The notes: generated from the sequence alone by a model not told the origin. Numbered from the stretch's first letter, positions 44,021 to 62,521 are shown. The stretch: DNA of 64,000 nucleotides from Terriglobales bacterium (GCA_016201265.1 JACQDD010000210.1:3102-67101); one strand, 5' to 3'. Made by a program: numbers and translations.

Positions 44021-44111
44021 CCTCGATCCTTGCCTGTGGGGTCCGGACGAGAGGCTCTGCGGGGAGCCCCTCATCCGATTCTAAGGTCTTGCGTGAGGCA
44101 GGTTCCTTCAA

Positions 44112-46307
44112 TTACGGCTGCATCTGAACTTGTCCCGAATAGCTAGTTGAGCAGCCAGCACTGGTCTTAAACTGCCCGTAGACGCGGAAACTCGGCGTAC
44201 CCACCGGGAGCCGAGATGCCGTGATGTTTGATCCGTCATTTCCTGTGGGGGGACTGCAATATTCATAACCACAGTAAGAACCCGTTGCGAAGGTCCCGAC
44301 GGAGTCGAACAACGTCCACGTGTACTGACCTCCTGCAGGGTCACTTGGTTCCACCAAGAAATGCCACTGAAGAGAGTTGAGATTCCCTCCTCCGAAGAAG
44401 GAGGCAGTTCCGCAGGTGGTATATGTCTGCAACGTCCACGACCAACTGTTTGACACAACGAGCGTAACGGGCACGCTCTGGACAAGGTTTCCGCTCGTAC
44501 CGGTAATGGTGAGGGTGTAGGTCCCAAACGGAGTGTTGCTGGACGTTGAAACGTTCAACGTTGACGATCCGGCTCCGTTCGGTATGGAAGCTGGGTTGAA
44601 GCTGGCGCTTGCCCCAGTTGGCAAACCGGCCACCGTGAGACTGACAGTTCCAGTGAAACCGCAACCCGGCGTCGAGGTTACCGTGTAGTTGGCACCGTCC
44701 CCAGGATGAATCCTCTGGGAGCTAGGTGTGGCGGACAGGGAAAAATTGCCAGTATTGCTAAATTTGAAGTTGGCAATCCGTGTGTTCCAGTTGAAGCTGC
44801 CGTTCGACTTGATGTACTCCTGCGTATACCAGAAAGTGCAGTCGTCCACTGGATCGACGGCCATTGCGCTGTAATCCCCCCAGCGGCTCAGGCCGCTGGT
44901 CTGCGAACCCGTTCCGTTCACAATTAATTGCTCTGTTTCCATCGTCCCAGCCGGATCGCCTGGTATTCGTCCGGTGAAGTAGATGGAGGGGAATACCGAA
45001 CCGCTGGAAACGCTGTAGCCGAGGGCCATGTCCCCGACATGGTCCATGGCAACGCTGCCCATCCAGCGCGTATTCGAGTCCGGACTGAACGTGCCCTGCT
45101 GGAACACGGCAGGTGTTCCGTTGGGATTACGCACTTCGTACCAACGCTCGCCGGTCGTGATCGAGTGGTTCACCACTAGGGCCTCATGCCCATCGGTGAA
45201 CTTGCGATATGCCAGCCGGTACATGAGACGGTCTCCCAGAGCGTCCAGTTTTTGCGTCGTTCCCGGCTGGACCACGCACGCGGAGAAACACTGCGGAGTG
45301 AAAGCGGCTACTGACAACGTCGTGGGACCCGTAAAGGTGGAACTCGCCGGATTGGTGAAGTTCACATGGAACTTCCACAGCCGCAGCGAGCTGCTGCCGA
45401 AGTTCATGAAGAAAGCCTGCTCACCAGCAGCGGGCTGAATGGTTCCGTCCATATCGGAAGGAAGCAGGCTGCCGATCAAAGATCCTTGTTGAAAGCAGAC
45501 GATCGTGGCCGCTTGACCGGCCAGCATCTTGCTCCGGTCCATCGCGCACGCGTCAGCGCCCACAAAGCCGCCGGCGTACATGTTGAAAGAGATGTAATAC
45601 GCGTCCGGCCAGACCCCCAGCTTCGGATAATCCGGGAAGTTCGCGAATTGGAAGGCGTACCGATTGTAAGTGCCGGTGGCGTCGGAGGTGGTCGAAACCG
45701 CCACGCACTGCAGGTATGGCGTCGTGCTGACGGAGAACTGCGTGAAGATCCAACGGTTCGCTATTTTGTCGTACTGTACGATTGGGTCACCGTCGTTGTT
45801 AGACTGACATCCGCCACCGAAGCCTGCCCAAAGGGCATTTCCTGGCGTCGGTCCGGCTACCAGTGCGCCGGAGGTCTTGCTAAAAACTGCAAACTCGGCA
45901 TTGACCCACTGGACATATTGGGTCGCCCCCACCGTTCCGTTAGTATCCGGCGGTGCGTATTGCATGAGGAACCCGTATTGTCCGAGACCCAGACCTTCAA
46001 AATTCAGTCCTAAGGTCGCTGCCACTGGTGCCAGAACTTTTTGCTGCAGGGCCGCGTCCGGGGCTGCGTATTGGGGCATTTCCGTGGCTGGTCCCGTAGG
46101 GAGCACTTTCAACACACGCGGTGAAAACTGATTTGGCTGCGCCGGTGTCAATCTCGCGAGATCCGCCAGCGGAGGCGAGACGTCATGCTTCACTTCCCTA
46201 ATTACATGCAACGTCGGCTGGGCTACCGCCGACACCTGGAGCATTGTGAAAAACATCACGGCAACACAGAACGCCGCGCAAAAGGGAGGAGAGTTCCTTC
46301 TGTCCAT
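44112..46307 (-). CDS. Secreted hypothetical protein (propeller-like N-terminal region + C-terminal Ig-like domains)
   Basis: 731 aa with a signal peptide. I recall the conserved-looking blocks PPDTNGTVGATQYVQWVN, DPIVQYDKIANRW and RWGDYSAMAVDP from uncharacterised proteins. The Ig-like segment is TGTVSLTVAGLPTGASASFNPASI...YTLTITGTS. Confidence 0.72.
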   Translation of the reverse strand: MDRRNSPPFCAAFCVAVMFFTMLQVSAVAQPTLHVIREVKHDVSPPLADLARLTPAQPNQFSPRVLKVLPTGPATEMPQYAAPDAALQQKVLAPVAATLGLNFEGLGLGQYGFLMQYAPPDTNGTVGATQYVQWVNAEFAVFSKTSGALVAGPTPGNALWAGFGGGCQSNNDGDPIVQYDKIANRWIFTQFSVSTTPYLQCVAVSTTSDATGTYNRYAFQFANFPDYPKLGVWPDAYYISFNMYAGGFVGADACAMDRSKMLAGQAATIVCFQQGSLIGSLLPSDMDGTIQPAAGEQAFFMNFGSSSLRLWKFHVNFTNPASSTFTGPTTLSVAAFTPQCFSACVVQPGTTQKLDALGDRLMYRLAYRKFTDGHEALVVNHSITTGERWYEVRNPNGTPAVFQQGTFSPDSNTRWMGSVAMDHVGDMALGYSVSSGSVFPSIYFTGRIPGDPAGTMETEQLIVNGTGSQTSGLSRWGDYSAMAVDPVDDCTFWYTQEYIKSNGSFNWNTRIANFKFSNTGNFSLSATPSSQRIHPGDGANYTVTSTPGCGFTGTVSLTVAGLPTGASASFNPASIPNGAGSSTLNVSTSSNTPFGTYTLTITGTSGNLVQSVPVTLVVSNSWSWTLQTYTTCGTASFFGGGNLNSLQWHFLVEPSDPAGGQYTWTLFDSVGTFATGSYCGYEYCSPPTGNDGSNITASRLPVGTPSFRVYGQFKTSAGCSTSYSGQVQMQP

Positions 46308-46401
46308 AGCGACCTCCGATAGTCACTGAGTTCTCAATGGGGGGAGCAAGACCGGGCGATGAACTACAGTTCACCGACCGTGAGTAGCTCGCGATAAAGG
46401 C

Positions 46402-49400
46402 CTAAAAGTTGAGCCGCGCTTGGAATTCAACCACGCGGCCGGCGAAAGCACCACCAGCCGTTCCAAAGTGGTTGTCCCTGATATTCGTGCTCGGAGTGCT
46501 GTACCCGAATCCGTTCAGGTTCAGCTTGTTGAACAAGTTGAAGAAGTTCGCCCGGAAATCGATCCTGGCCCCTTCACCGGTGATGAACGGCACGCGCGTT
46601 TCCTTGCCGAGACTCACGTCGAACGCCTGGTAACGCGGACCGCGGAACGAATTCCGTTTCACAAACGGTGGACCCGAACTGGTCATGTCAAAATATGCCG
46701 AGCCTCCATTCGGGAAATTGCCGCCTGGCTTTTGGAAGGTCGAAGTGCTGTAGTCCTGACCAGCGCCGCCCAAGTAGGCTTTTGGCAGCGAAGGACAGAT
46801 ATTGTTTGTGCCGCTCGGCACCGGCGGGCAGCCCCATCCCATTACGGCGCTCCACGGGAACCCGGAATGGAACTGGAAGGTAGGATCAATGTGCCAGCCG
46901 CCAAGGAGTTTGTATGTCCAACTGTCCTTGCTCCCCGGGAACGGGAGATCCCACAGAGCAGAGAGCGAGAAGCTATGGGTGGCGTCAAAATCCGACGGAC
47001 CAAAGTCGCCCGCATTCTGGTTGAGCGGATAGAACTGGTTGGTGTAGCCACCCGCGCCTTCGCCGGTGACCGTGTCCATACTCTTGCTCCAGCGATACTT
47101 CGCGAACATCTGTACCCCATGGGAAAAGTTGCGTTTCAGATTCGCCAGCAGCGCGTTGTAGTGGGCTTTGGCGTCGGTGGATGGGAAGTACACGGCACCG
47201 TAGTGCGCGTTCGCGTGTTGGTAGACGTTTTCGAGGTTGACGATTCTCAGAATCCGGTGACTGGAACTGCCCTGATAGCCCAGCGTGGCCACGAAATCGT
47301 GCGGCAGTTCATATTGGAAATCCAGGGAGTAGCTATACACGTAGGGTGTGCTGAAGTTTTGCGGTGCTCCCCAGATCTCCACTTTCCCGTAAGGGCCTCC
47401 GGTATTGGGATCAAAAGCCAGGGCCGGATTCGCAGGATAGCCAGTGATCGAATGCTGGCTGGAGCCCTGCACAACCACGATTTGGTTGCCGACACCGTTG
47501 GGAGCATAGGGGAGGGCCATCCAGCAGTTGGCCAGCAGGTCGTAAGTGTTGACGGCGTCTGCCGAGCACTTGTCAGTGGGGATGGAGCTCGTGCCTGCAG
47601 CGGCGCAACAGATACCATAACGGAAGACAAAGGGCGCATTTACGCGGCTGATACCGGTCATGGTATCCGTAATCCGGTTGTAGCCAACGCCAAAGCCACC
47701 CCGGAAAACGGCCCTGTTACTGAATTTAGACGGGCTCCAGGCAAAACCGAGGCGCGGACTGAAGTTGTTCTTGTCGGACGGGTAGAGAGGGTTCGAAACC
47801 TTTACCGTAGCGTTCGCTAGGCCGTCCACATAGTCACTCACCGGATTCAGGAATAAGTTGGCCAGCTGACCGTGCTTGTCGGAAAGCGGACTGAAATATT
47901 CGTAGCGCAGCCCGATGTTTATGGTGAGGTTCGAGCGCAGTTTGAGGTCATCCTGAATGAACCATGCGATATCGTGTTGCCGGAAATACTTGTGATTATC
48001 AGTAAACGCTCCGGTAATCGGGTTCGCGTTCACGCCTTCATAAATAGGAGCACCGTTAGCTAGTTCCCAGATCCCATGGTAAGCGTAGATCGGACGCTGG
48101 TCACCGAACATATAGTCGGTATTGTCCTGGATCCAGTTATAGTTGAAACCAGCCTTCAGGCCATGACGGCCGTGAACTTTACTGAGGACATCGCGGAACT
48201 CAAACTGGTTTTGGGCAAACACTCCCGGCGAGTTATCCCCCTGAGGGGGTCCCCAGAAGTTCACGTCCAAAGGTATGCCCTCCAACTTCATCTCTGGCAG
48301 ACCCCAATCAAGCTGGGAGTTGATCTTGTATTCGTTGTTGCTCCAGCGAGTAGCATTGAAACGCGCCTCGTTCAGTAGGCTGGGCGAGAAGTTCCGGTTC
48401 CACAGAAACGTCACGAGACCGTTGCGCCATTTCGAGTTAATGTCCTGGTTCACACGGGCATTACCCGTGCTCGGTTGCGTGTAGTCATATGGCGTGAGGT
48501 AAAAGCTGCCCGCAAACTGGTTCTTGCCGTGGTTGAAGTCGATGCGCGTGTTGTACTGGTTTCCGCTTAGCGTACTGGGGTTGAGAAAGAGGACCTTTTG
48601 CATGTCGGGAACGCCATCGAATCCGCCGGCGGTGGTGTCACTCACGCAGCAGGTGTTCTGGAGAATGTTCCAGGTCGGAACATATTGGCCATAGGTCCAC
48701 GTGGGATCAGCACCGGTGATGCCGAGCCCGCCAAGGTCCACGCCGCCAGAGATCACCTGGCACCCAGAGCCATCCGCACCCTGGACCTCTCCCGGTGAAT
48801 AGGTATAGTTGGGCCATTGCCCCTTGAAGTCATTGCAATCCGGCGTGAGTACCTGCAGGATGCGTGGCTGGTTGTTCGTCGCCGTGAGGAGTGCAGTCTC
48901 GACGGAGTTGGGGCGTGTGTTCTTCATGAAGTCCACAAACTGCTGAGCCTCGATGTACTGAGTCTTGTTGGTGCTGCTGTGTTTCCGGTTTCCCTCGTAG
49001 GAAAAGAAAAAGAAGATCTTATCTTTCCAGATCGGGCCACCGATACTGCCGCCGAACTGGCGGTTCTTGTTGCTGACGCGCTCAGTACAGTTATGCGGGG
49101 TGTCTGCCGGACAGGTGCCATCCGCCAGACGGCCGTCCGAGTATCCACCCCAGCGGCTGTAGGCGTTCAACCCTGGCTCATCGTAATCGAAGAAGCCTGA
49201 GCCGTGGAACTGGTTGGTGCCGGTCTTCGAAATCGCTTTGATCTGAGCGCCAGTGTTGCGTCCGTCTTCAGCCGAGTAGTCGGTGGAGAGAATCTTCACT
49301 TCGGCGATAGACTCCTGGTTTGGAGTCAGGACGGCAGCGCCGCCCCAGGTGAGACTGTTGACGCTGGCGCCGTCAATCGTGAAGTTGTTGCCGCTGGGAC

Positions 49401-50019
49401 GCTGGCCGTTGGCGGTGACCTGCACCACGTTTTCCACCGAAAAAATAGAGTTCGTGGAAGCGCCCGGACCGGACGTATTGTAGAAGTTCGCCGCCGAGCC
49501 GATTCCGGTGCGCGCGCCGTCCCCGAACACACCAGGCGCCAGCCGCAGCAGTTCATACGGGTCGCGCCCGTAGGAAGGCATCCGCTGAATGTCTTTGGCG
49601 GTAATTTCGGCGCTGATGTTCGCATTCTCGGTCTCCGCGCCGGCGGCTGTCACCGTCACCGTCACCGTCTCCATCACCCCGCCCGGTTCCAGCGTCACAT
49701 TCAGGCCGCGCACGCTCTCGGCCACAACCTGCACCTCCTTGGCGGTGCTCTTCTTGAAGTGCCCCGAGGTGACTTCGACCGTATAGACGCCGGGAATCAG
49801 CGCCGAAACGCGATAGAAGCCGGTATCGCCCGCAACCGTGGACCGGCTCACGCCCGTCGCCTGGTTGGTAACCGTGATGGTGGCGCCGGGGACGACGGCG
49901 CCGCTCTTGTCACTGATGGTTCCCTGGATGCTCGCGCCATACTGCGCCATCATGGACGCAGAGAGCAACAACACGAGCGACAGCAGCATGGCACATCGCA
50001 GAACGTGGGTACGGCTCAT
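46402..50019 (-). CDS. TonB-dependent receptor with N-terminal carboxypeptidase-regulatory-like domain
   Basis: The ATG at 50019 follows GGAGG. It has a signal peptide, then IQGTISDKSGAVVPGATITVTNQATG (CarboxypepD_reg), a plug region, and a large barrel ending FQARLNF. Confidence 0.9.
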   Translation of the reverse strand: MSRTHVLRCAMLLSLVLLLSASMMAQYGASIQGTISDKSGAVVPGATITVTNQATGVSRSTVAGDTGFYRVSALIPGVYTVEVTSGHFKKSTAKEVQVVAESVRGLNVTLEPGGVMETVTVTVTAAGAETENANISAEITAKDIQRMPSYGRDPYELLRLAPGVFGDGARTGIGSAANFYNTSGPGASTNSIFSVENVVQVTANGQRPSGNNFTIDGASVNSLTWGGAAVLTPNQESIAEVKILSTDYSAEDGRNTGAQIKAISKTGTNQFHGSGFFDYDEPGLNAYSRWGGYSDGRLADGTCPADTPHNCTERVSNKNRQFGGSIGGPIWKDKIFFFFSYEGNRKHSSTNKTQYIEAQQFVDFMKNTRPNSVETALLTATNNQPRILQVLTPDCNDFKGQWPNYTYSPGEVQGADGSGCQVISGGVDLGGLGITGADPTWTYGQYVPTWNILQNTCCVSDTTAGGFDGVPDMQKVLFLNPSTLSGNQYNTRIDFNHGKNQFAGSFYLTPYDYTQPSTGNARVNQDINSKWRNGLVTFLWNRNFSPSLLNEARFNATRWSNNEYKINSQLDWGLPEMKLEGIPLDVNFWGPPQGDNSPGVFAQNQFEFRDVLSKVHGRHGLKAGFNYNWIQDNTDYMFGDQRPIYAYHGIWELANGAPIYEGVNANPITGAFTDNHKYFRQHDIAWFIQDDLKLRSNLTINIGLRYEYFSPLSDKHGQLANLFLNPVSDYVDGLANATVKVSNPLYPSDKNNFSPRLGFAWSPSKFSNRAVFRGGFGVGYNRITDTMTGISRVNAPFVFRYGICCAAAGTSSIPTDKCSADAVNTYDLLANCWMALPYAPNGVGNQIVVVQGSSQHSITGYPANPALAFDPNTGGPYGKVEIWGAPQNFSTPYVYSYSLDFQYELPHDFVATLGYQGSSSHRILRIVNLENVYQHANAHYGAVYFPSTDAKAHYNALLANLKRNFSHGVQMFAKYRWSKSMDTVTGEGAGGYTNQFYPLNQNAGDFGPSDFDATHSFSLSALWDLPFPGSKDSWTYKLLGGWHIDPTFQFHSGFPWSAVMGWGCPPVPSGTNNICPSLPKAYLGGAGQDYSTSTFQKPGGNFPNGGSAYFDMTSSGPPFVKRNSFRGPRYQAFDVSLGKETRVPFITGEGARIDFRANFFNLFNKLNLNGFGYSTPSTNIRDNHFGTAGGAFAGRVVEFQARLNF

Positions 50020-50142
50020 GGCAGCCTCCGAAGCAATTTCTTCCAATTTTTGGATTTATCAGACCGCGGAATCTATGGTTTCCTAAAACACTACTAAACT
50101 GATTTAGTACACGCTCGGCCTTATAGCATTGTTTCCCGCAGC

Positions 50143-51294
50143 GTGTCAAGAGTTTCCCGCGCCGGCCAAAACAACCGGCCAACAACCCCCTTGCTCTTGC
50201 CTCTTCGGCTGTGCGAGACTGCGCCCGTGCCCCCTCGCAAGAAGCCCGGCCGAATCGCGCCGGGAGGCGACGGCCGCCCCAAGCCGCGAGTTACGCTCAA
50301 GGTCCTGGCGGACCACCTTGGTCTTTCGCCGGCCACGGTTTCGCTCGTCATGAATCAGGCCCCGGTGGCCGATACCATCCCCCGGGCGACCCAGGAGCGT
50401 ATTTTCGCCGCCGCCCGGGAACTGAACTACCGTCCCAGTTTCGCCGCGCGCTTTGCCCGCACTCAGCGCAGCTTTACCGTCGGCGTGATCGTTCCCGAGG
50501 TCAGCGAAGGCTATGCCGCCCTGGTCATGAGCGGGATCGAGGACCATCTGCTCAAGGAAGGTTATTTCTACCTGGTGGCCAGCCATCGCCACCGCGACGA
50601 CCTGATTGATGAATATCCCAACCTGCTGCTGGGGCGCTCGGTGGACGGGTTGATCGCCGTGGACACGCCATGGCGTCACCAGCTACCCATTCCGGTGGTG
50701 ACCGTCTCCGGCCATAACGGGTCGAATGGTGTCACCAACATTCTGCTCGACCATAAGCATGCCGCCGAACTGGCGCTGCGCCACTTGCAGCAACTCGGCC
50801 ACGAACGCATCGCCGTCATCAAGGGACAGGAGTTCAGTTCCGATACTGAGGTCCGGTGGAAGTCGATTGCCGACGCCGCCGCGCGCCTCGGTCTGCGGTT
50901 GTACCCCAACTTGACGGTGCAACTGCAGAGCGACCTGGCCGGCCCGCAGCTCGGCTATCGCGTAACCAAGCGCCTGCTGGAACGAAAAGAAAAATTCACG
51001 GCCCTGTTCGCGTTCAATGACATCTCCGCCATCGGCGCGATCGGAGCCTTGCGGGACTCAAAGCTGGAAGTCCCCAGGGACGTCTCGGTGGTGGGTTTTG
51101 ACGACATTCAGAGCGCGGCGTTTCAGAATCCGCGGCTGACGACCATCCGCCAGCCGTTGCGGAAAATGGGGATGGTTGCCGCCGAGAATCTGCTGCGCCG
51201 CATCGCCCGGCCGGATGATGATTCTTACCCACGCGAGATTGTGGTGGAGCCGGAGCTGGTGGTGCGCGAATCCACCGCGCGCGCGGCTGGCTAG
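50143..51294 (+). CDS. LacI family transcriptional regulator
   Basis: It has the HTH VTLKVLADHLGLSPATVSLVMNQ and a periplasmic-binding-protein-like effector domain. The start is uncertain: GTG at 50143 or in-frame GTG at 50227. Confidence 0.85.
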   Translation: MSRVSRAGQNNRPTTPLLLPLRLCETAPVPPRKKPGRIAPGGDGRPKPRVTLKVLADHLGLSPATVSLVMNQAPVADTIPRATQERIFAAARELNYRPSFAARFARTQRSFTVGVIVPEVSEGYAALVMSGIEDHLLKEGYFYLVASHRHRDDLIDEYPNLLLGRSVDGLIAVDTPWRHQLPIPVVTVSGHNGSNGVTNILLDHKHAAELALRHLQQLGHERIAVIKGQEFSSDTEVRWKSIADAAARLGLRLYPNLTVQLQSDLAGPQLGYRVTKRLLERKEKFTALFAFNDISAIGAIGALRDSKLEVPRDVSVVGFDDIQSAAFQNPRLTTIRQPLRKMGMVAAENLLRRIARPDDDSYPREIVVEPELVVRESTARAAG

Positions 51295-51444: not shown

Positions 51445-52356
51445 TCACTTGCTCGCGGCTGATTGGGCCGTGCCGAACACGGCATCCACCGTCGCTACAA
51501 TCTGTTCCATGGCGCCGTCGATATCCATGGTGAAGCGAGCCAGGTCCATGTCAGCAAGCGCGGGATGGGTCTTCGCCAGAGTTTGCCACGCCAATTCGCC
51601 GCCCAGCTCCATCCCCATGATCTCGTCGTAACCGTAACCCAGGTAGCGCACGCGGCAGAGCAGATCGCCTAAGTGAACCAGGCAAACCAGGGGCTGTGGG
51701 GCCGGCAGGAGTTCCACATTGTGGTGACCGTAAGCGACGTCGGACAAATCCCGCGGCAGTCCCCAGTGCTCAGCCAGCATCTTTCCGCTCTCGCAATGCG
51801 TGAACCCCAGGATCTCCTCTTCGCACAGATGGAGGGCGCGGCGCTGCTCGGTGGCCGACTGCAGGCACTTGCGAAAATCTTTGGTACAGAGCAACGAATT
51901 CACCAGAATGCCCAGGTCATGTAGCAATCCTCCCAGGTAGGCCTTTTCGGGTTCGGCATAACCGATTCGTTGCGCCATTCGTTGCGTGACTAGAGCACAG
52001 CCCAGGGAATGCCGCCAGAACGCGACCGGCTCGAACACCCACTTGTCTTTCGGTATCACCCGATTGATGCACAATCCGAACAGCATGGACCGCACTCTTT
52101 GCAGGCCGAGCGCCATGACCGCAGCGCGCACCGTTTCCACCTCGCGGCATCCGAACAGGGGAGAATTCGCCATGCGCAAGCACTGGGCCGCGATGGCTCC
52201 GTCGTAGGAAACCAGCTCCACTACCTTGTCGAAGCTGATTTTCTCGGCCGGCATACGCAGAATCTCGAGGAGCGGCTGCAGGATTACGGGCGCCGTCGAA
52301 ATCGAATCCAGCTTCTTGACCTGCTCCTGCAGTTTTTCGAGCTTTTGGGCGGTCAT
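51445..52356 (-). CDS. HDOD domain protein
   Basis: The ATG at 52356 overlaps the cheR TGA (ATGA) and follows GGTGGAGG. PVILQPLLEIL...DGAIAAQCLRMANSPLFG...AFWRHSLGCALV...LGGLLHDLGILV is the HDOD pattern. Confidence 0.85.
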   Translation of the reverse strand: MTAQKLEKLQEQVKKLDSISTAPVILQPLLEILRMPAEKISFDKVVELVSYDGAIAAQCLRMANSPLFGCREVETVRAAVMALGLQRVRSMLFGLCINRVIPKDKWVFEPVAFWRHSLGCALVTQRMAQRIGYAEPEKAYLGGLLHDLGILVNSLLCTKDFRKCLQSATEQRRALHLCEEEILGFTHCESGKMLAEHWGLPRDLSDVAYGHHNVELLPAPQPLVCLVHLGDLLCRVRYLGYGYDEIMGMELGGELAWQTLAKTHPALADMDLARFTMDIDGAMEQIVATVDAVFGTAQSAASK

Positions 52357-53324
52357 TTCTTGCCTCCACCGGCGGCGCCGGCCAGCGCCTTGCAGTACGC
52401 GGTCGCCCCGGGGAAATGGACCAGGCGAAAGGTGTCGTCCACCTGAAACAGCGATTCGGCGTGTCCCAGGAAGAGGTAGCCGTTGGGCAGCAGGTTGGAA
52501 TAAAAGTGCTGCACCACCCGGCGCTTCGACGCCAGATCGAAATAGATCAGCACATTGCAGCAAAAGATCACGTCCATGCCTTTCAGAAACACCATCTTGC
52601 TGTCATCGCTGAGGTTGACCCGGTCAAAGCGAATCTGCGATTTGAGTTGGTCGGTGACCTGCAGTCTCTTTTCGTCGTGGACCTTGAAGTATTTTCTTCG
52701 CAGCAGTTCGCTGGTGTTGCGCAACGCGTACTCGCCGTAAATACCCGCCTTGGCAGCTTCCAGCGAGTTGTCGTTCAGGTCGGTGGCCAGAATGTCGAAG
52801 CTCCAGCCAGCCAGCAGTTTCTCGCTTTCTTCCAGCAAAAACATGGCCAGCGTGTAGGGCTCCTCTCCGGTCGAGCAACCGGCGTTCCAGAAGCGCAGGC
52901 GCTTGAAACCCATCGCGCTCTTGGCTTGCACGATCTGGGGAAGAATCACGTTGCGCAGCGCCTCCAGATGCGGAGGACTGCGGAACATGTAGGTCTCGCC
53001 AATGGTGATTTCGTTCAACAGCAGGCGCAGCTCGGCGTCGCGGTTTCCGCGCAGCGTGAGGTGCTCGAGATACTCCGAGGCGGTCTTCGCGCCGACCACG
53101 CTCATGCGGCGGGCAGATCGCGATACCAGGAGATAGAGTTTTTCTTCCGGCTGATAGATGCCCGACATCCGGTAGATCAGATCGCGAATCTTCAAGTACG
53201 CCGGATCGCTGGAAACGGGTTCCGGAATTGCCGTCGGCATCGCTTTTGCGGCTTCGATCGCCATGGTCGTGTCTTTCGCCGGCCCCTGCTTCCCGGCATG
53301 GGGTTCTTGCCTCCCGGCGCTCAT
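52353..53324 (-). CDS. cheR: Chemotaxis protein methyltransferase CheR
   Basis: It has [27 protein letters not shown] and [13 protein letters not shown]. The ATG at 53324 overlaps the cheB TGA (ATGA); ATG at 53264 is the alternative. The longer track ORF overlaps cheB and is rejected. Confidence 0.9.
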
Positions 53325-54385
53325 CGGGCGAGCGAAGCGAGGCGGCTGCAAGCCACCCGCCGCACCACCTCCGCGCCAATCTCGCCCAGCGGGCAAATGC
53401 GGTCGGCCTGGCCGGCCGCAACCACATTTCCGGGCATACCCCAGACGACCGAAGTGGCTTCGTCCTGGACGACCACTTCTCCGCCCGCCTCCCGGATGAC
53501 CCCCGCCCCCCGCGTGCCGTCCGCCCCCATACCGGTAAGCACCACCGCCAGCGCGTTCGCGCCGTAGGCCTGGGCAACCGAGCGAAACAACACGTCCACT
53601 GCCGGCCGGCAGGAATTTTCCGGCGGCTCCTGATCGAGATTCAGCACTACTTCCGTTCCCTTCCGCGCCACGGTCATGTGATAGTCGCCGCGCGCGATCC
53701 ACACCTGTCCTGGTTCGAGCGTCTTCCCGGCCTCTCCTTCCCGCACCGTGAGCACGGAGCGAGAATCCAGACGCTCGGCCAGCAGGCGCGTGAACAGCGG
53801 TGGCGTGTGCTGCACGATCACCACGGGCACGGGAAAATCTTCCGGGAGGTGCGGAATCACCGCCGCCAACGCGTTGGGCCCCCCGGTGGAGGTCCCAATC
53901 GCGAGAATGTCGATGCGTTGACCACCCGGTTTTCTCTTGAGCGGGGAGACGGTCAGCGCGGGCACAGCAGGGCTGCGCCGGCCCGCCAGGGAAATGATCT
54001 TGGCGACTAGCTCCTGCCGTACCTGCTCCATCGCGCTGGCCAGACTTTCACTATTGCTCGGCTTCGTCGCGTAATCGGAAGCGCCCAGCGACAACGCCTC
54101 CAGCGTGATGGCTGCTCCCCGTTCGGTCAGGGTGCTGAACATGATCACCGGCAACTTGGGGTACAGCTTGCGGATCTCCACCAGGGTCTGGATCCCATTC
54201 AACCCGGGCATCTCGATGTCCAGCGTGATCACGTCCGGATTCAATTGCGGAATCTTGGCCAGAGCGATCGCCCCGCTGGAAGCCGTTCCGGCGACCGTGA
54301 TTTCCGCGCTGGCGGCGAGGGCTTCGCACAACAGCTTACGCACGACCACGGAATCGTCCACGATTAGAACCCGAACCGGTAGCAT
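53321..54385 (-). CDS. cheB: Protein-glutamate methylesterase CheB (REC + methylesterase)
   Basis: 354 aa. It has [12 protein letters not shown]...[14 protein letters not shown] (REC) and [10 protein letters not shown]...VQHTPP...LTGMGADG (catalytic Ser-His-Asp regions). Confidence 0.92.
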
Positions 54386-54405
54386 GGGATGTTCACTTTT
54401 TTGCC

Positions 54406-54436
54406 GCGGATGCTGCGTTCTTAGCGCAGCATCCGC
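54406..54436. other. Perfect 12-bp stem-loop in the mcp-cheB spacer
   Basis: GCGGATGCTGCG-ttcttag-CGCAGCATCCGC. On the operon (minus) strand it is followed by an A-run, not a U-run. Confidence 0.85.
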
Positions 54437-54464
54437 AGGTTACGTATGAAGTGACCGCCGCGCT

Positions 54465-57182
54465 TTACGAACCTGCCCCGGCGCTCATTGCCCTCGAGGC
54501 TTGCGGCCTCGCCTGATGCCCAGAGTGTGCATCATTCTCAATCTTGAATTGCGAAACCAGTTCGCGCAGCTTGGTCGACATCTGTGCCAAGGACTGTGCC
54601 GCCTTCAGCGAGTCGTTGGCCCCATGGGTCGTGCTCTTCGCCGCCTCCGCCACGCCGGCGATGTTCTGGCTGATCTCGCCCGAACCGCGCGCCGCTTCGC
54701 TGACGTTGCGGGACATTTCGTTGGTCGTGGCGTTTTGCTCTTCCACGGCGGTGGCGATCGTGTTGGAGATGTCGTTCACCTGCTTGATCACCTCGCCGAT
54801 CTGACTGATGGCGTCAACCGCGCTCTTGGTGTCGCCCTGGATCGCCTCAATCTTGCGGCTGATGTCCTCCGTCGCCTTGGCCGTCTGCTTAGCCAGTTCC
54901 TTGACCTCGTTGGCCACCACCGCAAAACCCTTGCCGGCTTCGCCGGCGCGGGCGGCTTCGATGGTGGCATTCAAGGCCAGCAGATTGGTCTGCTGGGCAA
55001 TCGAGGTGATGACCTTGATGACCTGCCCAATTTCGGTGCTGGAATCTCCCAGTTTGCTCACGATCTGGTTGGTATCTTCCGCCACCTTGACCGCACTGGT
55101 GGCGACCTTCGCCGATTCATGAGCGTTCTTGGCGATTTCCTTGATGCTGGCACTCATTTCTTCGGTGCCGGTCGCCACGGTCTGGAGGTTCTTGTTGACT
55201 TGCTCAGCCCCAGCCGAAACTACGTTGGCTTGTGCCGAGGTTTCTTCCGCGTTGGCGCTCATCTGCTGGCTGGTGGCCGTCAGTTCCTCCGCGGAACTCG
55301 ACAGCGCCTGCGCGTTCTGCCCGAGCGTCTCCATGCTTCCCCGGAGCGTGTCGGCCGTCTTGTTGGTTGCTTTCCCGACCTCCGCGAAGACTCCCTGGTA
55401 CGTCCCCCGGACGCGACGCGTGTAGTCGTTCGCTGCCATCAACTGCAGAACCTCATTGGCCTCAACTAACCCACCCAGGCCATCGATACAAGCGTTGAGG
55501 TTGTTCTTGATGGTGTTGAAATCCCCGTTGTAGGTGTCCGTGATCTTGGGCGGCACGTCGCCCTTGGAGATCTGGTCCACGTACTTGGCCGCCACGTTCA
55601 AAGGCCCGATCACCGCGTCCAGGGTCTCGTTCACTCCCTGCACGATCTTGCGGTAGTCGCCCTGGTGCATGCCGGCATCGGCCCGCGTCGCCAGCTTGCC
55701 CTCCACCGCCGCCTTCGACAGCATGCCGGCATCGGCCACCAGCGCGTTCACTGCGTCGATGCACTGGTTCAGATTGTTCTTGATGGTGTTGAAGTCGCCG
55801 TTGTAGTTGTTTGTGATCTTCGGTGGGATTTCGCCCTTGCTGATCTTGTCGACGAAGTCGGCAGCCACATTCAGGGGCCCGATCACGGCGTCCAGCGTGG
55901 CGTTGACGCCCTCGACGACCTTGCGGTAGTCGCCCTGGTGCTTGCCGGCGTCAGCCCGCGTCGCCAGCTTACCCTCCACCGCCGCCTTCGACAGCATGGC
56001 AGCGTCGGCCAGCATTGCGTTCAGTGCCAACTTCTGTTGCGTGACGTCGGTGGCGTACTTCACCACTTTGAAGGGCTTGCCGTGCAAATCCATGATGGGG
56101 TTGCAGGAAGCCTGAATCCAGACTTCCGTCCCGCCCTTGCCCAGCCGCTTGTACTCGGCCGCCTGGTACTCGCCCCGGTTCAGCTTGGCCCAGAACTCCT
56201 TGTAGTCCGCGCTCTGCCGGTAGGCTTCATCCACGAACATGCTGTGATGCTTGCCCTTGACCTCTTCCAGGGTGTAGCCCAGGGCCTTGAGGAAGTTCTC
56301 GTTGGCTTGGACAACCGTTCCGTCCATCTGAAATTCGACCACCGCCTGCGACTTGCCGATGGCGGCAATCTGGCCGGCATAGTCCGCGTTTTGCACTTCC
56401 AGCCGCAGCTTCTCCGTGACCACATCCCAGGTGACCATGGGTCCCAAGTAGTTCTGCTGAGCGTCATATATGGGACTGACGAGAAGACTCAGGGTCTCCG
56501 GCCCCAGCTGGATGTTCGCCTGATGGGGCAGGTTCTTGGGATCGCTGAGCAGACGACGCGGGTGCGCGGGATTCTTGTGGAAAATGTCGATCGAACTTCC
56601 CAGGACATCGTCCACCTTGCAGGGCAGCAGGTGTGCAAGCGTGCTCAGAGTTCTCTTCGAAGCGGCGTTCATGTAGCGGATAATGAAATCGGCGTCGGCC
56701 CGCATTACATTGATGGGAGAATTTTCCACCATCTGCTGGAACATGAGAGCTTCCTTGTTATCCGCCGCGAGGGAGTCTTCCGAAGACACGGTATTCACGA
56801 TCTCGGCAGCAAGCGCCTGTACAAGGGCGACAATCTCGTCGATGGCAGTGTCGTCCACATGCAGCGACTTGAGGCTGGCCACCAGATGCTGCGCGACTCG
56901 GTCGAAATGACGCTGTTCGATATGCAGACCGGCGTGAAGTTCACGCATACCGGGCCCCTTGTAGCGGGCCGGCCCGCCAAGCGCCTGGGAAAAGAACGCG
57001 ACTTGCTGCTCCTTCAGCCGTTTCATGTTGACCCCGGCGAAGAATGGACGAAGGACGACGTCTCCCAGGATACGGACATACATCCCTTCCACGGCTGCAC
57101 GGACGGCGTTTTCGCCGCCGATGGTCTCATAAATGGTTGCTACGGCGGCTCCGCCGCTATTTCCGTTGCGCTTGCCTCTCAT
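54465..57182 (-). CDS. Soluble methyl-accepting chemotaxis protein: truncated haemoglobin (group I) + 2 PAS + duplicated HAMP-like module + MA domain
   Basis: 905 aa with no TM segment. The N-terminus is globin-like: [72 protein letters not shown]. The C-terminal signalling domain includes [37 protein letters not shown]. Confidence 0.9.
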
Positions 57183-57215
57183 TTGCAGATCTCCCTTTGC
57201 TTGTGAACTTTGATT

Positions 57216-57590
57216 TCAAAGCATCCAACTAGTTACGTAATTCGTAACTCGAGCAGCCCCGAATACCCATGCCACGCGGCGATGCCAGGGGCGATACCGT
57301 TCATTTCCTCTTCGGATGTAAATGCCCAATGGCGCCATGGCGACGTAAGTAGCCAACACCAGTACAGAGGCCGCGACGTGCACAAATAACGATAGCGAAG
57401 GGCAAGTCATGGTCTTGTGGATGGCCCCGCGCGTCGCTTCGATCATGGCCAACGCCGATAGATCCAGACCGAAAGCCGTGCTCATGAGCCAGACGTGCAA
57501 CTCTCGTCGCCGGCGAAGCATGAAACCGCAAGCCAGCAACAGCAGCGTCAGTGTGGACAGTGCCCTAAACATCGATATTCGACCTTTCAT
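57216..57590 (-). CDS. Small integral membrane protein (3-4 TM helices, several His), unknown family
   Basis: 124 aa. Its ATG lies 3 nt after the cheW stop and it ends 33 nt before the mcp start. It has hydrophobic helices and I recognise no family. Confidence 0.55.
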   Translation of the reverse strand: MKGRISMFRALSTLTLLLLACGFMLRRRRELHVWLMSTAFGLDLSALAMIEATRGAIHKTMTCPSLSLFVHVAASVLVLATYVAMAPLGIYIRRGNERYRPWHRRVAWVFGAARVTNYVTSWML

Positions 57591-57593
57591 CCG

Positions 57594-58043
57594 CTATTGC
57601 ACCGAGCGGGCAGCCTCTCCTCCGCTCACGGTTCGTTCCGTGTCGAGTACGAGCAGTAGGCGTTCTTGCAGCTTGTACACTCCGCGTACCAACTCCCGCG
57701 CCTCGCCTTTCAAGGTTTCCGGCGGAGGCTCAAAGCAGCCTTCCTCGACCTCAAGCACATCCCCAATCTCATCCACCAGGAAGCTCACCGCCCCATCATC
57801 GGTGCGCACGACAACATTCATGGGCAGTTGGTACTCCGGACGGTCCTCCATGCCAAAGCGCCGACGCAAATCCAACGCCATCACGATCTGTCCCCGCAAA
57901 TTAATGAGTCCGCGAATGACCTGGGGCATGAGGGGTACTCGGGTCATCTCCTGGTAGCGGATCACCTCCTGCACCTGCTGCACGGGCACCCCGAAGAACT
58001 GATCTCTGAGGAAAAATGTGCAAAATTGCTGTATGTTCGCCAC
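57594..58043 (-). CDS. cheW: Chemotaxis coupling protein CheW
   Basis: 149 aa. FCTFFLRDQFFGVPVQQVQEVI...INLRGQIVMALDLRRRFG...VSFLVDEIGDVLEV is the CheW pattern. Confidence 0.9.
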   Translation of the reverse strand: MANIQQFCTFFLRDQFFGVPVQQVQEVIRYQEMTRVPLMPQVIRGLINLRGQIVMALDLRRRFGMEDRPEYQLPMNVVVRTDDGAVSFLVDEIGDVLEVEEGCFEPPPETLKGEARELVRGVYKLQERLLLVLDTERTVSGGEAARSVQ

Positions 58044-58058
58044 CAGTGTTCTCTCTCC

Positions 58059-60776
58059 TTACGTCTGAACCCCTGCTGACAACTGGCTGCCATCGGCCGC
58101 CGCGATCAGGCCCGGTACATCCAGAATGTCGGTAACGCGTTTCTGGATCACGGCCGAGCCCAGCACGCCTTTACGTTCGGTTTGGCGCTGCATGACAAAC
58201 GATTCCTCGACGATGTCCAGAATGCGGTCCACCACCAGCCCCACACTTCGCCCTTGGTCGGCATAGACCACGACATGCAACGATTCCTGGCCGGCCTCAG
58301 CCGCCTTCCGGCGCTTGGTCTGCAGCACTTCGGAAACCCAGACGAGGGGCATGATCTGCCCCCGGTACTGCACCGCTTCCTGGTCGCCGGCGACCTCGAT
58401 GGTGTCGCGGGGAAATTCCTCGAGGCGCGCCACCAGGGAGAGGTCGATGGCCATTCTCCCGTTTTCCCCGTACTGGAACAGCAGCACGGCATTGCGCTGA
58501 TTCCCGTCGGCAACCCCGAGCGACTGCTTTCCTTCTTTTTCCGCCAGAGCACGGTCCCGGACTTCACTGACCACGTGGGCGCGCTGCGCCAGGCCCAGCA
58601 CATCGAGAATCAGGGCCACCCGGCCGTCTCCCATGATCGTCGCCCCGGCGTAGGCGTTGACGCTCTTCAACTGTTTGCTGAGCGGCTTGACCACGATCTC
58701 CTCGGTGTCGTTGATTTCGTCCACGACCAGCCCAAACTGCTGGTCACCGGCCCGCAGCACCACGATGTTGGCGTTCTGGGTCTCAAGGGCCTTCTTTTCC
58801 ACAACCGTCAGCAGCTCGATAATCTTCTTGGAGAGTGGCTCCACCTTGCTGAACTCGCGCTGGGCCTGGCTCTGGTTGCCATTCACGTTGAGAACGACGA
58901 TTTCCCGCACGAGTTCATGAAAGTGCTTGTGCGTCGCTTCCAGCGCCTGCATCTCGTCGATGCTGCCGTAGTCTTTCAGGCCAGCCGAATAGAGCCATTT
59001 CCCCAAGGCACACTCCGTGGGAGAACCCGCTTGCTCCACCGTCATCGTGGTCTTACCGTCCAGAAGCTGTCGGAGCCGGCCGATCCACTGCTCGTGCTTG
59101 TGCCGGGCCTGGGTGAAATCCAGTGATTCCCATTTGGAACTGGAAGTTGTTGGCGCGGCTGCCGCGTCCTGCGCTTGGGCGTCGGCTTTCAGTTCCCGGT
59201 TTAAATACACGAGGGGAAGGAGTTGCCCCCGCAGCCGGTGGACCGGCGCGCCATTGACCAGTTCAATGCCCTTGCGCGCCTGTTCTCCTTCCAGGCGCAC
59301 CAGTTCGAGCAGACTGACCTGCGGGATGGCGTAGCGGTCGCCGGTGGTGGTCACGATCAAGGCGGGGATGATGGCCAGGGTCAGCGGAATCTTCATGCGT
59401 ACGGTGGAGCCCTGTCCCGGCTTCGACTGCACGTCCACGGTACCGCCGATCTTTTCGATGTTGGTCTTCACCACGTCCATGCCCACGCCCCGGCCGGAAA
59501 CGTTGGTGACTTTTTCCGCCGTGGAGAAGCCCGGCAGGAAGATGAGGTTGGTAATCTCGCGCTCGGTCATCCGTGCTGCCTGATCGGCGCTGACCAGCGC
59601 CTTTTGCATGGCCTTGGTGCGGATTTTTTCGTAGTCCAGTCCGGCGCCGTCGTCGGTGATTTCGATGTTGACCTGCCCGCCCTCGTGAAAGGCCCGCAAG
59701 AACAGCCGGCCCTCTGGGTTCTTGCCCGCCGCGATCCGCGCCTCGGGACTTTCGATGCCGTGGTCCACGGAGTTGCGCACGATGTGGGTGAGCGGGTCCT
59801 TGACGGCCTCAATGATCGTCTTGTCGAGCTCGGTTTCCTTGCCTTCCATCTCGATGCGGACCTGTTTGCCGCAGCCCAGCGCCACATCCCGCACGGTGCG
59901 CGGGAACTTGCTCCAGATGTTGCCGATGGGCTGCATGCGGGTCTTCATTACGCCTTCCTGCAGCTCGGTGGTAATGAGGTTGAGCCGCTGGCTGGTGGCC
60001 AAGAGTCCGCTGTCTTCGCTGGAATTGGTAAATTGCACGATCTGGTTGCGGAGCAGGACCAGTTCGCCGACCCGGTTCATCAGCCGGTCGAGCTGGTTAA
60101 CGTCGACCCGAATGGTGCTGTCGCTGGCGCTCTGCCCGCGGGCCTGCTGCTGGACATTCAGCGCTTCGAGCACATCCTGCGGCTTCACGGCTCCCTTTTC
60201 CACCAGAATCTCGCCGACGTGCCGCGGGTCTCCCGCCTTTTGCTGCTCCACGGCGTCGTAGACCTCGCTTACCTTCGCCGCGCCCCGCTTGATTAGGATG
60301 TCGCCGATGCTAGGTACGGGATGCGGCGCATCGTTTTGCTGGGCTTCCTCTTTGGCCGGCGCCGGGTCGGGAGCCGGGTTCGGTTCCGCCTTCGGCTGGA
60401 GCAGCCGCGTCAAGGTGGCGATCAGTTCCTGGTCGTTGCGCTCACCTTCGTTGCCCGTGGCTTCAATGCTTCCCAGCATGTGGCGAACCGCATCCACCAT
60501 GGCCAGCAATGCGGTCGTAATTTCAGGGCTCAGCGTGAGCTGGCCATCACGCAGACGCGCCAGCAGGTTTTCCCCCACGTGGGCGACGGCTTCGAGCTTG
60601 CTGAACGCGAGAAATCCCGAAGTGCCTTTGATGGTGTGAATGGTGCGAAACACGCTCGCCAGGATTTCCTGGTCGGAGGGATGCTTTTCCAGTTCCACCA
60701 GGTCGCGGTCGAGCCGGTCCAGGTTCTCGTAACTTTCGACCAGAAACTCTTTGACGATGTCGTCGGAATCGTTCAT
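58059..60776 (-). CDS. cheA: Chemotaxis histidine kinase CheA, atypical (P1, MshEN-like repeats instead of P2, P3, P4, P5 interrupted by a CZB domain, extra CheW-like domain)
   Basis: 905 aa. It has the Hpt motif FRTIHTIKGTSG, the N-box HIVRNSVDHGIE, G1 DDGAGL and G2 GRGVGMDVV. The P5 halves lie at aa 472-530 and 669-729. The CZB motifs are HEQW / CALGKW / HKHFH. A second CheW-like domain spans aa 760-895. Confidence 0.92.
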   Translation of the reverse strand: MNDSDDIVKEFLVESYENLDRLDRDLVELEKHPSDQEILASVFRTIHTIKGTSGFLAFSKLEAVAHVGENLLARLRDGQLTLSPEITTALLAMVDAVRHMLGSIEATGNEGERNDQELIATLTRLLQPKAEPNPAPDPAPAKEEAQQNDAPHPVPSIGDILIKRGAAKVSEVYDAVEQQKAGDPRHVGEILVEKGAVKPQDVLEALNVQQQARGQSASDSTIRVDVNQLDRLMNRVGELVLLRNQIVQFTNSSEDSGLLATSQRLNLITTELQEGVMKTRMQPIGNIWSKFPRTVRDVALGCGKQVRIEMEGKETELDKTIIEAVKDPLTHIVRNSVDHGIESPEARIAAGKNPEGRLFLRAFHEGGQVNIEITDDGAGLDYEKIRTKAMQKALVSADQAARMTEREITNLIFLPGFSTAEKVTNVSGRGVGMDVVKTNIEKIGGTVDVQSKPGQGSTVRMKIPLTLAIIPALIVTTTGDRYAIPQVSLLELVRLEGEQARKGIELVNGAPVHRLRGQLLPLVYLNRELKADAQAQDAAAAPTTSSSKWESLDFTQARHKHEQWIGRLRQLLDGKTTMTVEQAGSPTECALGKWLYSAGLKDYGSIDEMQALEATHKHFHELVREIVVLNVNGNQSQAQREFSKVEPLSKKIIELLTVVEKKALETQNANIVVLRAGDQQFGLVVDEINDTEEIVVKPLSKQLKSVNAYAGATIMGDGRVALILDVLGLAQRAHVVSEVRDRALAEKEGKQSLGVADGNQRNAVLLFQYGENGRMAIDLSLVARLEEFPRDTIEVAGDQEAVQYRGQIMPLVWVSEVLQTKRRKAAEAGQESLHVVVYADQGRSVGLVVDRILDIVEESFVMQRQTERKGVLGSAVIQKRVTDILDVPGLIAAADGSQLSAGVQT

Positions 60777-61128
60777 GGCAAGTTACCCTCTCAATCGGCG
60801 GAATCATTTCCGGGCTTGAACCCAAAGGTCTCCCCTGCGCTGAAGCCGGTGTCCAGCCGCGCTGCCGCAATCTCGCCGGAAGCTGTCATCAGATTAGAAA
60901 AAGCTCAAAGAAGAATCCGAGAGCCCTACCCGGAGAGCAAGTTCCGGGCCGAGGAACACAGGAAGGGATTCAGACCCGCACCTTCGGGGGAGAACCTAAA
61001 GGACGGGCAGAAAAGTGATGGGAAAAGAAACAATCCATCGGCCGGCCGACCGCGGCCACAAGTCTATTGCCCGGATCGCTACCGAACTCGATTGGCCCGG
61101 TACGCGGTTCGATCCTTGTCATCACCTC

Positions 61129-61678: not shown

Positions 61679-62521
61679 CTAAAATGGAAACCGCACCGTC
61701 GTCACCCAATTCCGGTCGTAGTTGTGGAATTTCGTAGCGGCAATCTGGACGCCCCCGCCAAAAGCAAGTCCCAATCTCTTCCATAAATGCAGACGCCCAA
61801 CCATCAAGCCGGGAGACAAGAACACCTGTTTCTTTCCGTCGTTCTTGCCGTTGGCCCAGAATGTTGAGTTGACCCCTAACTCGGGCCATAGCTTCTTCAA
61901 TATTCTGTATTGGAAGGCAGCGTTGAACGCCACCGGGGTTCCAATTGTGGTGATGTCTCCGGTCGGCAGGGTCACGCCAACCGTACTCTGGACATCAAAA
62001 TTGCCCCATCCCTTTCCCAGCCCGAGTGAGGGTGTAAGCAGCGCATGGGCAGCCCCATTTGAGTAGGAACCGGTGGGTACTGTTGCCCCGAACAACGCAG
62101 TCACGATGTAGTTTCCCCGCTTTTCGTTCCCCGCAGCAGCGCGATACTTGAACAAAAACCCCATGTCGCCGAACCCGTCGCGAATCTGCGGACTGCTGTG
62201 GGTGATGTAGGGAGGCAGGCTTACCAGAACCTCGACTCTTTCCGCCGGGATCAGCTCCAGTCCTCTACCACTGCCGTAATTGGTGGTTGTCAAACTCGCC
62301 TTCGATTGCCATCCGATGTCATAACGAACCTGCTGCACCAAGCGAGGGGTTACCGTGAACACCGGGGCCATCCAATGGGGCTGGTCCGCTTCTGCGCGGG
62401 AAGAACGTTGGAACCATTTGCCGACAAAGTCATCGCCCGGAGATTGAGATGGAGCGGTTTGCGGCCATGCAGGTGCACTGAAGAGGCTTAATGAAATGAG
62501 TACGACGATAGAGACTTTCAA
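61679..62521 (-). CDS. Outer-membrane beta-barrel protein (MetA-pathway/phenol-degradation-like transporter family)
   Basis: 280 aa with a signal peptide ending AWPQ, alternating beta-strand pattern, and a terminal Phe (VRFPF). Confidence 0.72.
   Translation of the reverse strand: MKVSIVVLISLSLFSAPAWPQTAPSQSPGDDFVGKWFQRSSRAEADQPHWMAPVFTVTPRLVQQVRYDIGWQSKASLTTTNYGSGRGLELIPAERVEVLVSLPPYITHSSPQIRDGFGDMGFLFKYRAAAGNEKRGNYIVTALFGATVPTGSYSNGAAHALLTPSLGLGKGWGNFDVQSTVGVTLPTGDITTIGTPVAFNAAFQYRILKKLWPELGVNSTFWANGKNDGKKQVFLSPGLMVGRLHLWKRLGLAFGGGVQIAATKFHNYDRNWVTTVRFPF

Follow-up and report, generated by a model that had tools for sequence, protein, structure and literature searches.

A Terriglobia chemosensory operon without a linked cheY: a FliA-type promoter motif, CZB and MshEN-like modules in CheA, and a coupled HDOD gene

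Does a chemosensory operon that encodes no CheY signal without one, or does its CheY lie elsewhere in the genome? The question is raised by seven co-directional open reading frames (ORFs) on the minus strand (51445-60776) of a 64-kb stretch of DNA from the metagenome-assembled genome (MAG) of an uncultured soil member of the Terriglobia (Acidobacteriota); this whole stretch is referred to here as the window. The genes are ordered cheA, cheW, a gene for a small membrane protein, mcp, cheB, cheR and a gene for a stand-alone HDOD protein, and they had originally been predicted to form a CheY-less pathway of alternative function with a combination of parts not previously described. Our analyses favor, with a probability of roughly 0.58, a chemotaxis operon of the flagellar regulon that belongs to a Terriglobia-wide family and whose cognate cheY-cheX pair is unlinked and encoded elsewhere in the genome.

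The operon and its missing CheY

The genes of the operon, in the order of transcription, are as follows.

58059-60776, minus strand: cheA, 905 aa (Pfam), with P1/Hpt, an MshEN-like module, P3, P4, P5 with an inserted CZB domain, and an extra C-terminal CheW-like domain
57594-58043, minus strand: cheW, 149 aa (Pfam CheW, E 9e-33)
57216-57590, minus strand: small membrane protein, 124 aa, with hydrophobic stretches at aa 5-25 and 61-92 and a DUF420 match below the cut-off
54465-57182, minus strand: mcp, 905 aa (Pfam Bac_globin, PAS, two HAMP_2 and MCPsignal)
53321-54385, minus strand: cheB, 354 aa (Pfam REC and methylesterase; motifs DIEMP, GTSTGG, QH and GMGADG legible)
52353-53324, minus strand: cheR, 323 aa if translated from the ATG at 53324 and 303 aa if translated from 53264 (Pfam CheR_N and CheR)
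51445-52356, minus strand: stand-alone HDOD protein, 303 aa (Pfam HDOD, E 1e-46)

The ORF coordinates and the measured gaps, which from cheA to cheB are 15, 3, 33 and 79 nt, bear out the predicted seven-gene operon, its order and its 3-79 nt spacing. Two ATGA overlaps had also been proposed. That between the cheR stop and the HDOD start is real and recurs in five annotated relatives (L084, L086, L089, L090 and L097), but that between cheB and cheR depends on cheR starting at 53324; the start at 53264, which is equally compatible with the 300-306 aa of homologous CheR proteins, would leave a 56-nt gap. Promoter-like sigma-70 sites (1 versus 2.0 expected) and intrinsic-terminator-like sites (16 versus 10.2 ± 3.0 expected) within the operon were near chance and uninformative. 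Pfam matches, all above the curated cut-offs, showed a Che core that is complete except for CheY, consisting of a CheA with Hpt, dimerization, HATPase and P5 domains together with CheW, MCP, CheB and CheR; the globin, CZB, HDOD and other domain calls of the original prediction were all supported. Decay of the operon into pseudogenes was rejected, since its ORFs and motifs are intact and the ratios of nonsynonymous to synonymous substitution rates (dN/dS) are 0.05-0.22, indicating purifying selection on all six genes that could be compared.

No cheY, cheX, flagellar or pilus gene was found in the 64 kb, either by Pfam on called ORFs or by six-frame translation with CheY, CheB-REC and CheX queries, and the other receiver (REC) domains of the window belong only to two sigma-54 activators and one hybrid PAS histidine kinase, 33-51 kb away. 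A metagenome contig (L001) that reaches 6.7 kb past the window end carried only MFS and alternative-complex-III-type genes there, with no cheY or cheX. Thus, the claim that no output, flagellar or pilus gene lies nearby held across the 64 kb and 6.7 kb beyond.

The relatives of the operon present a different picture. Searches with CheA gave at least 8,000 scored candidates, and a scan of species-representative genomes gave 581 confirmed stretches encoding a CheA relative; 80 of these stretches were taken, and the window's own domains, together with CheY, served to map 79 related loci. Similar operons, which the original prediction had proposed to look for in other taxa, do occur: the order cheA-cheW-(optional small gene)-one to four mcp-cheB-cheR-HDOD was conserved in 46 loci. 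However, a convergent cheY-cheX operon was present no more than 2 kb behind HDOD, and mostly only 20-230 bp away, in 24 of the 40 loci that are informative for the pair, i.e., those whose sequence extends 2.5 kb or more past HDOD. Its two genes specify a single-domain CheY, which is highly conserved, and the phosphatase CheX, recognizable by its ExxN-22-P motif and by Pfam (PF13690). The family CheA has two forms, one of ~900 aa with CZB and one of ~785 aa without it, and the convergent pair stands beside CZB-type CheAs that are 81% (P0007) and 77% (L046) identical to that of the window. It is also found in the abundant organism of P0131, which has a CZB-type CheA and whose CheY was recovered on 345 contigs; among the listed matches there was one linked case, a 42,732-bp contig that carries both P0127 and P0007. 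CheY was 85-100% identical in the best 120 matches, compared to 50-88% for the CheAs among the matches listed or fetched, which would fit a conserved target such as the motor switch. Because close relatives with the same CZB architecture keep cheY-cheX next door, the missing CheY appears to be a local quirk of gene order. The claim that the system is CheY-less as a kind is therefore not supported and probably does not hold.

Two further arrangements were seen in the family. In L010 and L049 (10001-21000), two cheA-cheW-mcp units of this CheA family lie in tandem, and in genome CAWHVM01 a CZB-type cluster and a CZB-less one occupy separate sites (L019 and L076).

A neighbor-joining tree of 76 CheAs, from which the CZB columns were excluded, placed the cluster in an evolutionary context. 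The basal clades are all CZB-bearing, have the order cheA-cheW-mcp-cheY-cheB-cheR-cheX with no HDOD, and lie directly downstream of flagellin, fliD and fliS (Pfam-confirmed). An internal cheY and a terminal HDOD occur together in L037 and L062, and in L037 HDOD forms one co-directional run with cheX and cheY. The HDOD-bearing loci make up a large derived clade, and since the convergent cheY-cheX pair is scattered throughout it, the pair appears to be ancestral there. CZB-bearing and CZB-less CheAs are interspersed in this clade, and this sequence pattern suggests that CZB was lost repeatedly. The window groups with L004, L005 and L007, which have no adjacent pair, and its neighbors L046 and P0007 have one. 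In the flagellum-linked sister clusters, a conserved 132-aa protein without a Pfam match follows cheX (L012 20243-20638 and L030 21452-21847).

The upstream region of cheA carries the following feature.

60793-60819, minus strand: sigma-28 (FliA)-type promoter motif TCAAG-N15-GCCGATT (full copy TCAAGCCCGGAAATGATTCCGCCGATT), a consensus match upstream of cheA, with 16 nt between its end and the ATG

Sigma-28/FliA promoters have a widely conserved consensus, TAAAG-N~15-GCCGATAA. With the search pattern [TC][TAC]AAG-N13-17-[GAT][CT]CGAT[AGT], the motif was found upstream of cheA in 31 of 80 regions (the 79 related loci and the window), compared to 0.95 on average and at most 4 in shuffled sequences and to none on the reverse complement of the same regions; seven other loci have the same -41 to -43 geometry as the window. 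Only two matches occur in the 128 kb of both strands of the window, and the second (50819-50845, plus strand), inside a LacI-family gene, is most likely due to chance. In the flagellum-linked basal loci the motif directly precedes flagellin, fliD, cheA and the internal cheY, and it therefore appears to be the late flagellar promoter of these organisms. It also precedes 17 of 21 convergent cheY-cheX operons, in the near-perfect form TAAAGT...GCCGATA. Sigma-54 consensus sequences upstream of cheA were limited to scattered sites with 2 mismatches. The presence of the FliA-type motif before cheA argues, at the level of sequence, that the window operon belongs to the flagellar (FliA/sigma-28) regulon. 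Together with the cheY-cheX pairs of sister loci and the fliC-fliD-fliS linkage of the basal ones, it speaks against the alternative-function pathway that had been proposed.

Several observations weigh against assigning the operon to the flagellar regulon with its cheY-cheX pair elsewhere. The lack of cheY and cheX in the window and the 6.7 kb beyond it, and of any flagellar gene in the window, has been noted above, and 16 of the 40 informative relatives likewise have no adjacent pair. The promoter assignment is a consensus match, and the motif is unusually close, at 16 nt, to the start codon. The clusters of the two nearest relatives are eroded: L097 (CheA 84% identical; 6568-10096) has no cheB and only a cheR fragment of 163 aa, with half of the gene lost, and L096 (CheA 80%; 10001-14453) has only cheA-cheW-cheB, followed by unrelated genes. 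More weakly, among the best 120 of 2,931-7,846 CheY/CheX homologs there was none on the 4.32-Mb contig of P0020 (ERZ25039538:contig_2896; CheA 77%), nor any unlinked CheY or CheX of the window's own MAG.

These points bear on the alternative that the lineage is truly CheY-less, cheY-cheX having been lost and CheA~P serving only CheB, so that HDOD would be a phosphorylation-independent output or the operon a remnant. We consider this unlikely. Loss of the pair would fit the lack of cheY and cheX across more than 70 kb, the eroded clusters among the nearest relatives without an adjacent pair and the result for P0020, but it sits poorly with the seven intact ORFs, the intact catalytic motifs and the purifying selection, which is seen even against L084, a relative that is also without an adjacent pair. 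The retained FliA-type motif and the sisters at 77-81% CheA identity that keep cheY-cheX argue against it as well, and unlinked cheY genes are common in bacteria. HDOD is invariably kept and coupled to cheR, as such an output might be, but it has no receiver domain that could take the phosphoryl group.

Sensory modules of CheA and the receptor

CheA has Pfam matches to Hpt, H-kinase_dim, HATPase_c, CheW and CZB. It has a single Hpt, in which the phospho-accepting His47 is invariant among homologs, its catalytic motifs are present, and, like the MCP, it has zero hydrophobic segments. No Pfam match to a P2 or REC domain was obtained, in agreement with the earlier statement that this CheA has neither P2 nor a C-terminal REC. 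An AlphaFold2 (AF2) model of the full-length protein had a mean predicted local distance difference test (pLDDT) score of 69. Three regions of the protein stand out.

60150-60311, minus strand: MshEN/GSPII-type four-helix module (CheA aa 156-209) at the usual P2 position (family profile, AF2, Foldseek)
58896-59096, minus strand: CZB zinc-binding domain (Pfam aa 561-627; helical bundle aa 554-665), Pfam E 8e-14, between the halves of P5
58092-58493, minus strand: second, C-terminal CheW-like domain (aa ~762-895), Pfam CheW in three stretches, AF2 beta-domain with pLDDT 72-83

The first module consists of two tandem 24-residue motifs, SIGDILIKRGAAKVSEVYDAVEQQ and HVGEILVEKGAVKPQDVLEALNVQ, which start at aa 156 and 186 (30 apart) and are joined by a 6-residue spacer. 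When the linker was compared with Pfam, T2SSE_N and every other model gave nothing at E<=10, and the homology to MshEN emerged only when PDB sequences were searched with a family profile and when structures were searched. Specifically, a profile of 30 homologs of the linker matched PilF (6f8l, E 3e-13), PilB (1e-3) and MshE (5htl, E 0.0036), and it aligned the MshE of Vibrio cholerae (5htl) exactly over its c-di-GMP-binding residues 8-61. The AF2 model of the module is a four-helix bundle with a pLDDT of 86.5, and the top 15 Foldseek hits of this model were MshE, PilF-GSPII and PilB-N only, with a TM-score of 0.71 and a root mean square deviation of 1.2-1.3 Å for 5htl. Thus, both profile and model point to a four-helix fold homologous to MshE residues 9-61. 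The published MshEN motif, (R/K/L)LGxxhhxxGhhxxxxLxxxLxxQ, occurs twice with a 5-residue spacer, and its position 1, where R, K or L is tolerated, stacks on guanine. In the window's CheA this position is Ser (S156) in the first motif and His (H186) in the second, and in relatives it is Asn/His or Arg; relatives such as P0015 satisfy the relaxed published motif in both copies. Both among family members that have an adjacent cheY and among those that have none, the MshEN-like module is found and P2 is missing. The absence of P2 is therefore uninformative about CheY, and it does not carry the meaning that the original prediction had given it as a sign that CheY is lacking.

The prediction of a CZB domain of the zinc/oxidant-sensing type in CheA was confirmed by Pfam (52 bits versus a cut-off of 29.4) and by an intact and conserved zinc motif. 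The CZB (PF13682) regular expression Hxx[WFYL]x21-28Cx[LFMVI]Gx[WFLVI]x18-27HxxxH matched aa 561-620, with the ligands arranged as H561...C589-x-L-G-x-W...H616-xxx-H620; the three His are invariant among 51 homologs, and the Cys is kept in 90% or more of them. The CheA of Thermotoga maritima (2ch4) aligns on either side of an insertion of ~128 aa between the two P5 subdomains, and in the AF2 model the four CZB helices (554-665) sit between the P5 strands 468-524 and 669-696. In alignment and model alike, CZB is inserted within P5, between its two subdomains, and not appended to it.

The single receptor is soluble and has a hemoglobin domain, as had been predicted. It consists of an N-terminal globin, two PAS domains, two HAMP_2 domains and an MCP signaling domain, with no transmembrane segment. 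The globin (aa 16-129, nt 56796-57137; Bac_globin E 5e-24) is a group-1 truncated hemoglobin that aligns without gaps to mycobacterial trHbN (5ab8/1idr, E ~3e-26) and has both Tyr B10 and the proximal His; MYVRI aligns with FYVRV and MRELH with MKQVH. The C-terminal arm of the signaling domain is 3 heptads shorter than that of the 44H receptor TM1143, which would make it about 38H, although this value comes from pairwise-alignment offsets and was not used as evidence.

The small membrane protein encoded between cheW and mcp has a longer hydrophobic stretch of 32 aa, and its DUF420 match (18 bits versus a cut-off of 30.5) is sub-threshold. It is an optional member of the cluster at the cheW-mcp junction. 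Homologs are found at the same junction in two distant relatives (L051 12894-13403 and L064 12806-13201), and in L086 and L084 the junction holds a Gpr1/YaaH-type membrane protein or nothing.

The HDOD protein and the output of the pathway

The last gene of the operon matches positions 4-195 of the 196 positions of the HDOD profile (PF08668). Its product has a full-length match (E 3e-36) to an uncharacterized HDOD structure, PDB 3hc1, which is the closest solved structure; Pfam found no receiver domain in it, and its dN/dS values are 0.14-0.21. Since the gene is conserved and translationally coupled to cheR, its proposal as a component of the pathway is reasonable. In published work, stand-alone HDOD proteins (GsmR, SadB, Cj0248 and PSPTO_4229) have been tied to flagellar motility without a mechanism, and a literature search for HDOD together with CheA or CheY returned motility-screen papers only. 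REC-HDOD fusions are a common response-regulator architecture. Because of this analogy, our most economical guess would be that HDOD acts downstream of, or jointly with, CheY~P or CheR. The convergent operon of L089, whose CheA is 81% identical, consists of a 233-aa HDOD gene (19639-20340, minus strand), a 37-aa ORF (19146-19259, minus strand), cheY (19055-18669, minus strand) and cheX (18672-18184, minus strand), so that a second, shorter HDOD protein is encoded upstream of cheY.

In nine related clusters (for example, L011 13345-14613, minus strand), a gene for an EAL-HDOD protein is interposed between cheW and mcp in opposite orientation, which hints at a link of the family to c-di-GMP. The corresponding alternative, that the operon serves a c-di-GMP-linked function such as biofilm formation, exopolysaccharide production or c-di-GMP turnover, with the MshEN-like module and HDOD as its c-di-GMP interface, is less probable still than a CheY-less lineage. 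The MshEN-type module within CheA is its natural starting point, but position 1 of the two motifs is Ser or His and not R, K or L in the window. HDOD belongs to the HD superfamily, which also includes the HD-GYP c-di-GMP phosphodiesterases, but no gene with a GGDEF output accompanies it in the cluster. Neither the EAL-HDOD gene of the nine relatives, nor the Geobacter che cluster of unknown function that also has an HD-domain protein, nor the fact that no HDOD-type locus adjoins flagellar genes outweighs the FliA-type motifs before both cheA and the partner cheY-cheX, the descent of the family from a fliC-fliD-fliS-linked cluster and the extreme conservation of CheY. Least probable of all is the full combination of a multi-input CheA, in which the MshEN-like module binds c-di-GMP and CZB senses zinc or oxidants, with HDOD as the effector and CheY-free signaling in the window lineage.

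If the operon is instead, as we favor, a flagellar one with an unlinked cheY-cheX pair, the pathway could work as follows. The family of cheA-cheW-mcp-cheB-cheR-HDOD operons would descend from, and still belong to, the FliA/sigma-28 regulon. The soluble receptor, with its N-type truncated hemoglobin and PAS domains, is the likely sensor of O2, NO or redox state. CheA would phosphorylate CheB and the highly conserved single-domain CheY; the latter, together with its phosphatase CheX, would have been separated from the cluster in the window genome and should lie elsewhere in it, and CheY~P would act on the flagellar motor. CZB, placed next to the part of P5 predicted to contact the receptor and CheW, and possibly also the MshEN-like module, may modulate the kinase directly in response to zinc or oxidants and to c-di-GMP, respectively, in parallel to the receptor. 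HDOD, presumably made stoichiometrically with CheR, would be an accessory or effector of the pathway and may partner CheY~P, by analogy with REC-HDOD fusions.

Known systems and significance

The operon is closest in content to CheX-type flagellar chemotaxis (CheA-CheW-MCP-CheY-CheB-CheR-CheX; the sister clade by fliC-fliD-fliS), with which it shares the CheA, CheW, MCP, CheB and CheR core, a single-Hpt CheA without REC, the FliA-type motif and, in relatives, CheY and CheX. The window locus differs in having no cheY or cheX, an HDOD gene added after cheR and no flagellar neighbors. The Geobacter "group alpha" che clusters (cheA, cheW, cheB and cheR) invariably contain a gene for a stand-alone HD-domain protein with no assigned role, lack an mcp and, according to Tran et al. 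(2008, PMC2577667), are confined to Geobacteraceae; the window locus, which does have an mcp, is like them in joining a che cluster to a stand-alone HD-domain protein, and this is a resemblance only. Two of the established classes were considered and set aside. A Tfp class (Pil-Chp type) assignment, for which a ChpA-like CheA with several Hpt domains and a REC and neighboring pilG/H/I/J genes would be expected, is at odds with the single Hpt, the lack of REC in CheA and the lack of pilus genes in the window, and the ACF class, in which a non-motility output module such as REC-GGDEF accompanies the cluster and the kinase is often a CheA-REC hybrid, with a CheA without REC and with the lack of GGDEF or other output genes in the cluster or its relatives, except for HDOD and EAL-HDOD (9 loci).

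The individual modules have known counterparts. In the survey of Perkins et al. (2021, PMC8262984), a "CheW-CZB" class makes up 1.4% of CZB proteins, and CZB within CheA was not described. The window's CheA has the same zinc motif with the redox-active Cys as TlpD-like receptors and CheW-CZB proteins, and it shares with the CheW-CZB subgroup an Ala at position 2 after the Cys, but its CZB is spliced into the P5 of a full CheA and not appended to a receptor or a CheW. Fusions of MshEN to CheA and to CheX were listed by Wang et al. (2016, PMC5013675). The window module shares the tandem 24-residue motifs and the four-helix fold with MshEN/GSPII domains (PMC5013675; PilF GSPII-B, PMC11731258); unlike them, it has only the N-terminal four-helix half, a 6- and not a 5-residue spacer, and Ser/His at position 1. 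HemAT-type globin-coupled aerotaxis receptors resemble the receptor of the window in being soluble MCPs with an N-terminal heme-globin sensor, but its globin is a group-1 truncated (2-on-2) one, nearest to mycobacterial trHbN and not a sensor globin, and two PAS and two HAMP_2 domains come after it. A literature search on truncated-hemoglobin MCPs found nothing specific, and one on such operons found no description of the type in Acidobacteria. The claim of a wholly undescribed combination was too broad, as CheW-CZB proteins, MshEN-CheA fusions and Geobacter che clusters with an HD-domain protein had already been published. The parts are individually noted in surveys; no earlier description of the combination or of the family is known.

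The operon is flanked by genes for a LacI regulator, a TonB-type receptor with glycoside hydrolases, a Phenol_MetA_deg outer-membrane protein and an MFS transporter. Right behind HDOD, where relatives have cheX-cheY, the window has a polysaccharide-utilization-like block (41146-51294) with a glucoamylase-like gene, a GH39 gene, a gene for a 736-aa protein, a CarboxypepD_reg/TonB-type outer-membrane receptor gene and the convergent LacI regulator gene. The Phenol_MetA_deg gene is just upstream of cheA (61679-62521, minus strand); a gene of this type lies between cheW and mcp in several relatives (L012 13204-14304, L065 12881-13819 and L073 7631-8578). Farther away, 7103-18841 is a signaling region that encodes two sigma-54 activators of the NtrC type, a histidine kinase and a PAS hybrid kinase with a REC domain. 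Pfam recognized nothing in two ORFs of the window, at 11599-13950 (784 aa) and 36311-37609 (433 aa).

The Terriglobia are among the most abundant soil bacteria, and experimental knowledge of their navigation is almost nil. The family described here, present in many uncultured species, places two recognized small-molecule sensor modules in the chemotaxis kinase itself and fixes HDOD to CheR. If these modules are functional, they would provide a direct zinc/oxidant and c-di-GMP route into CheA, where the known routes are receptors, PilZ proteins and CheY-like proteins, and the operon would set the HDOD domain, widespread yet obscure in function, within a defined pathway.

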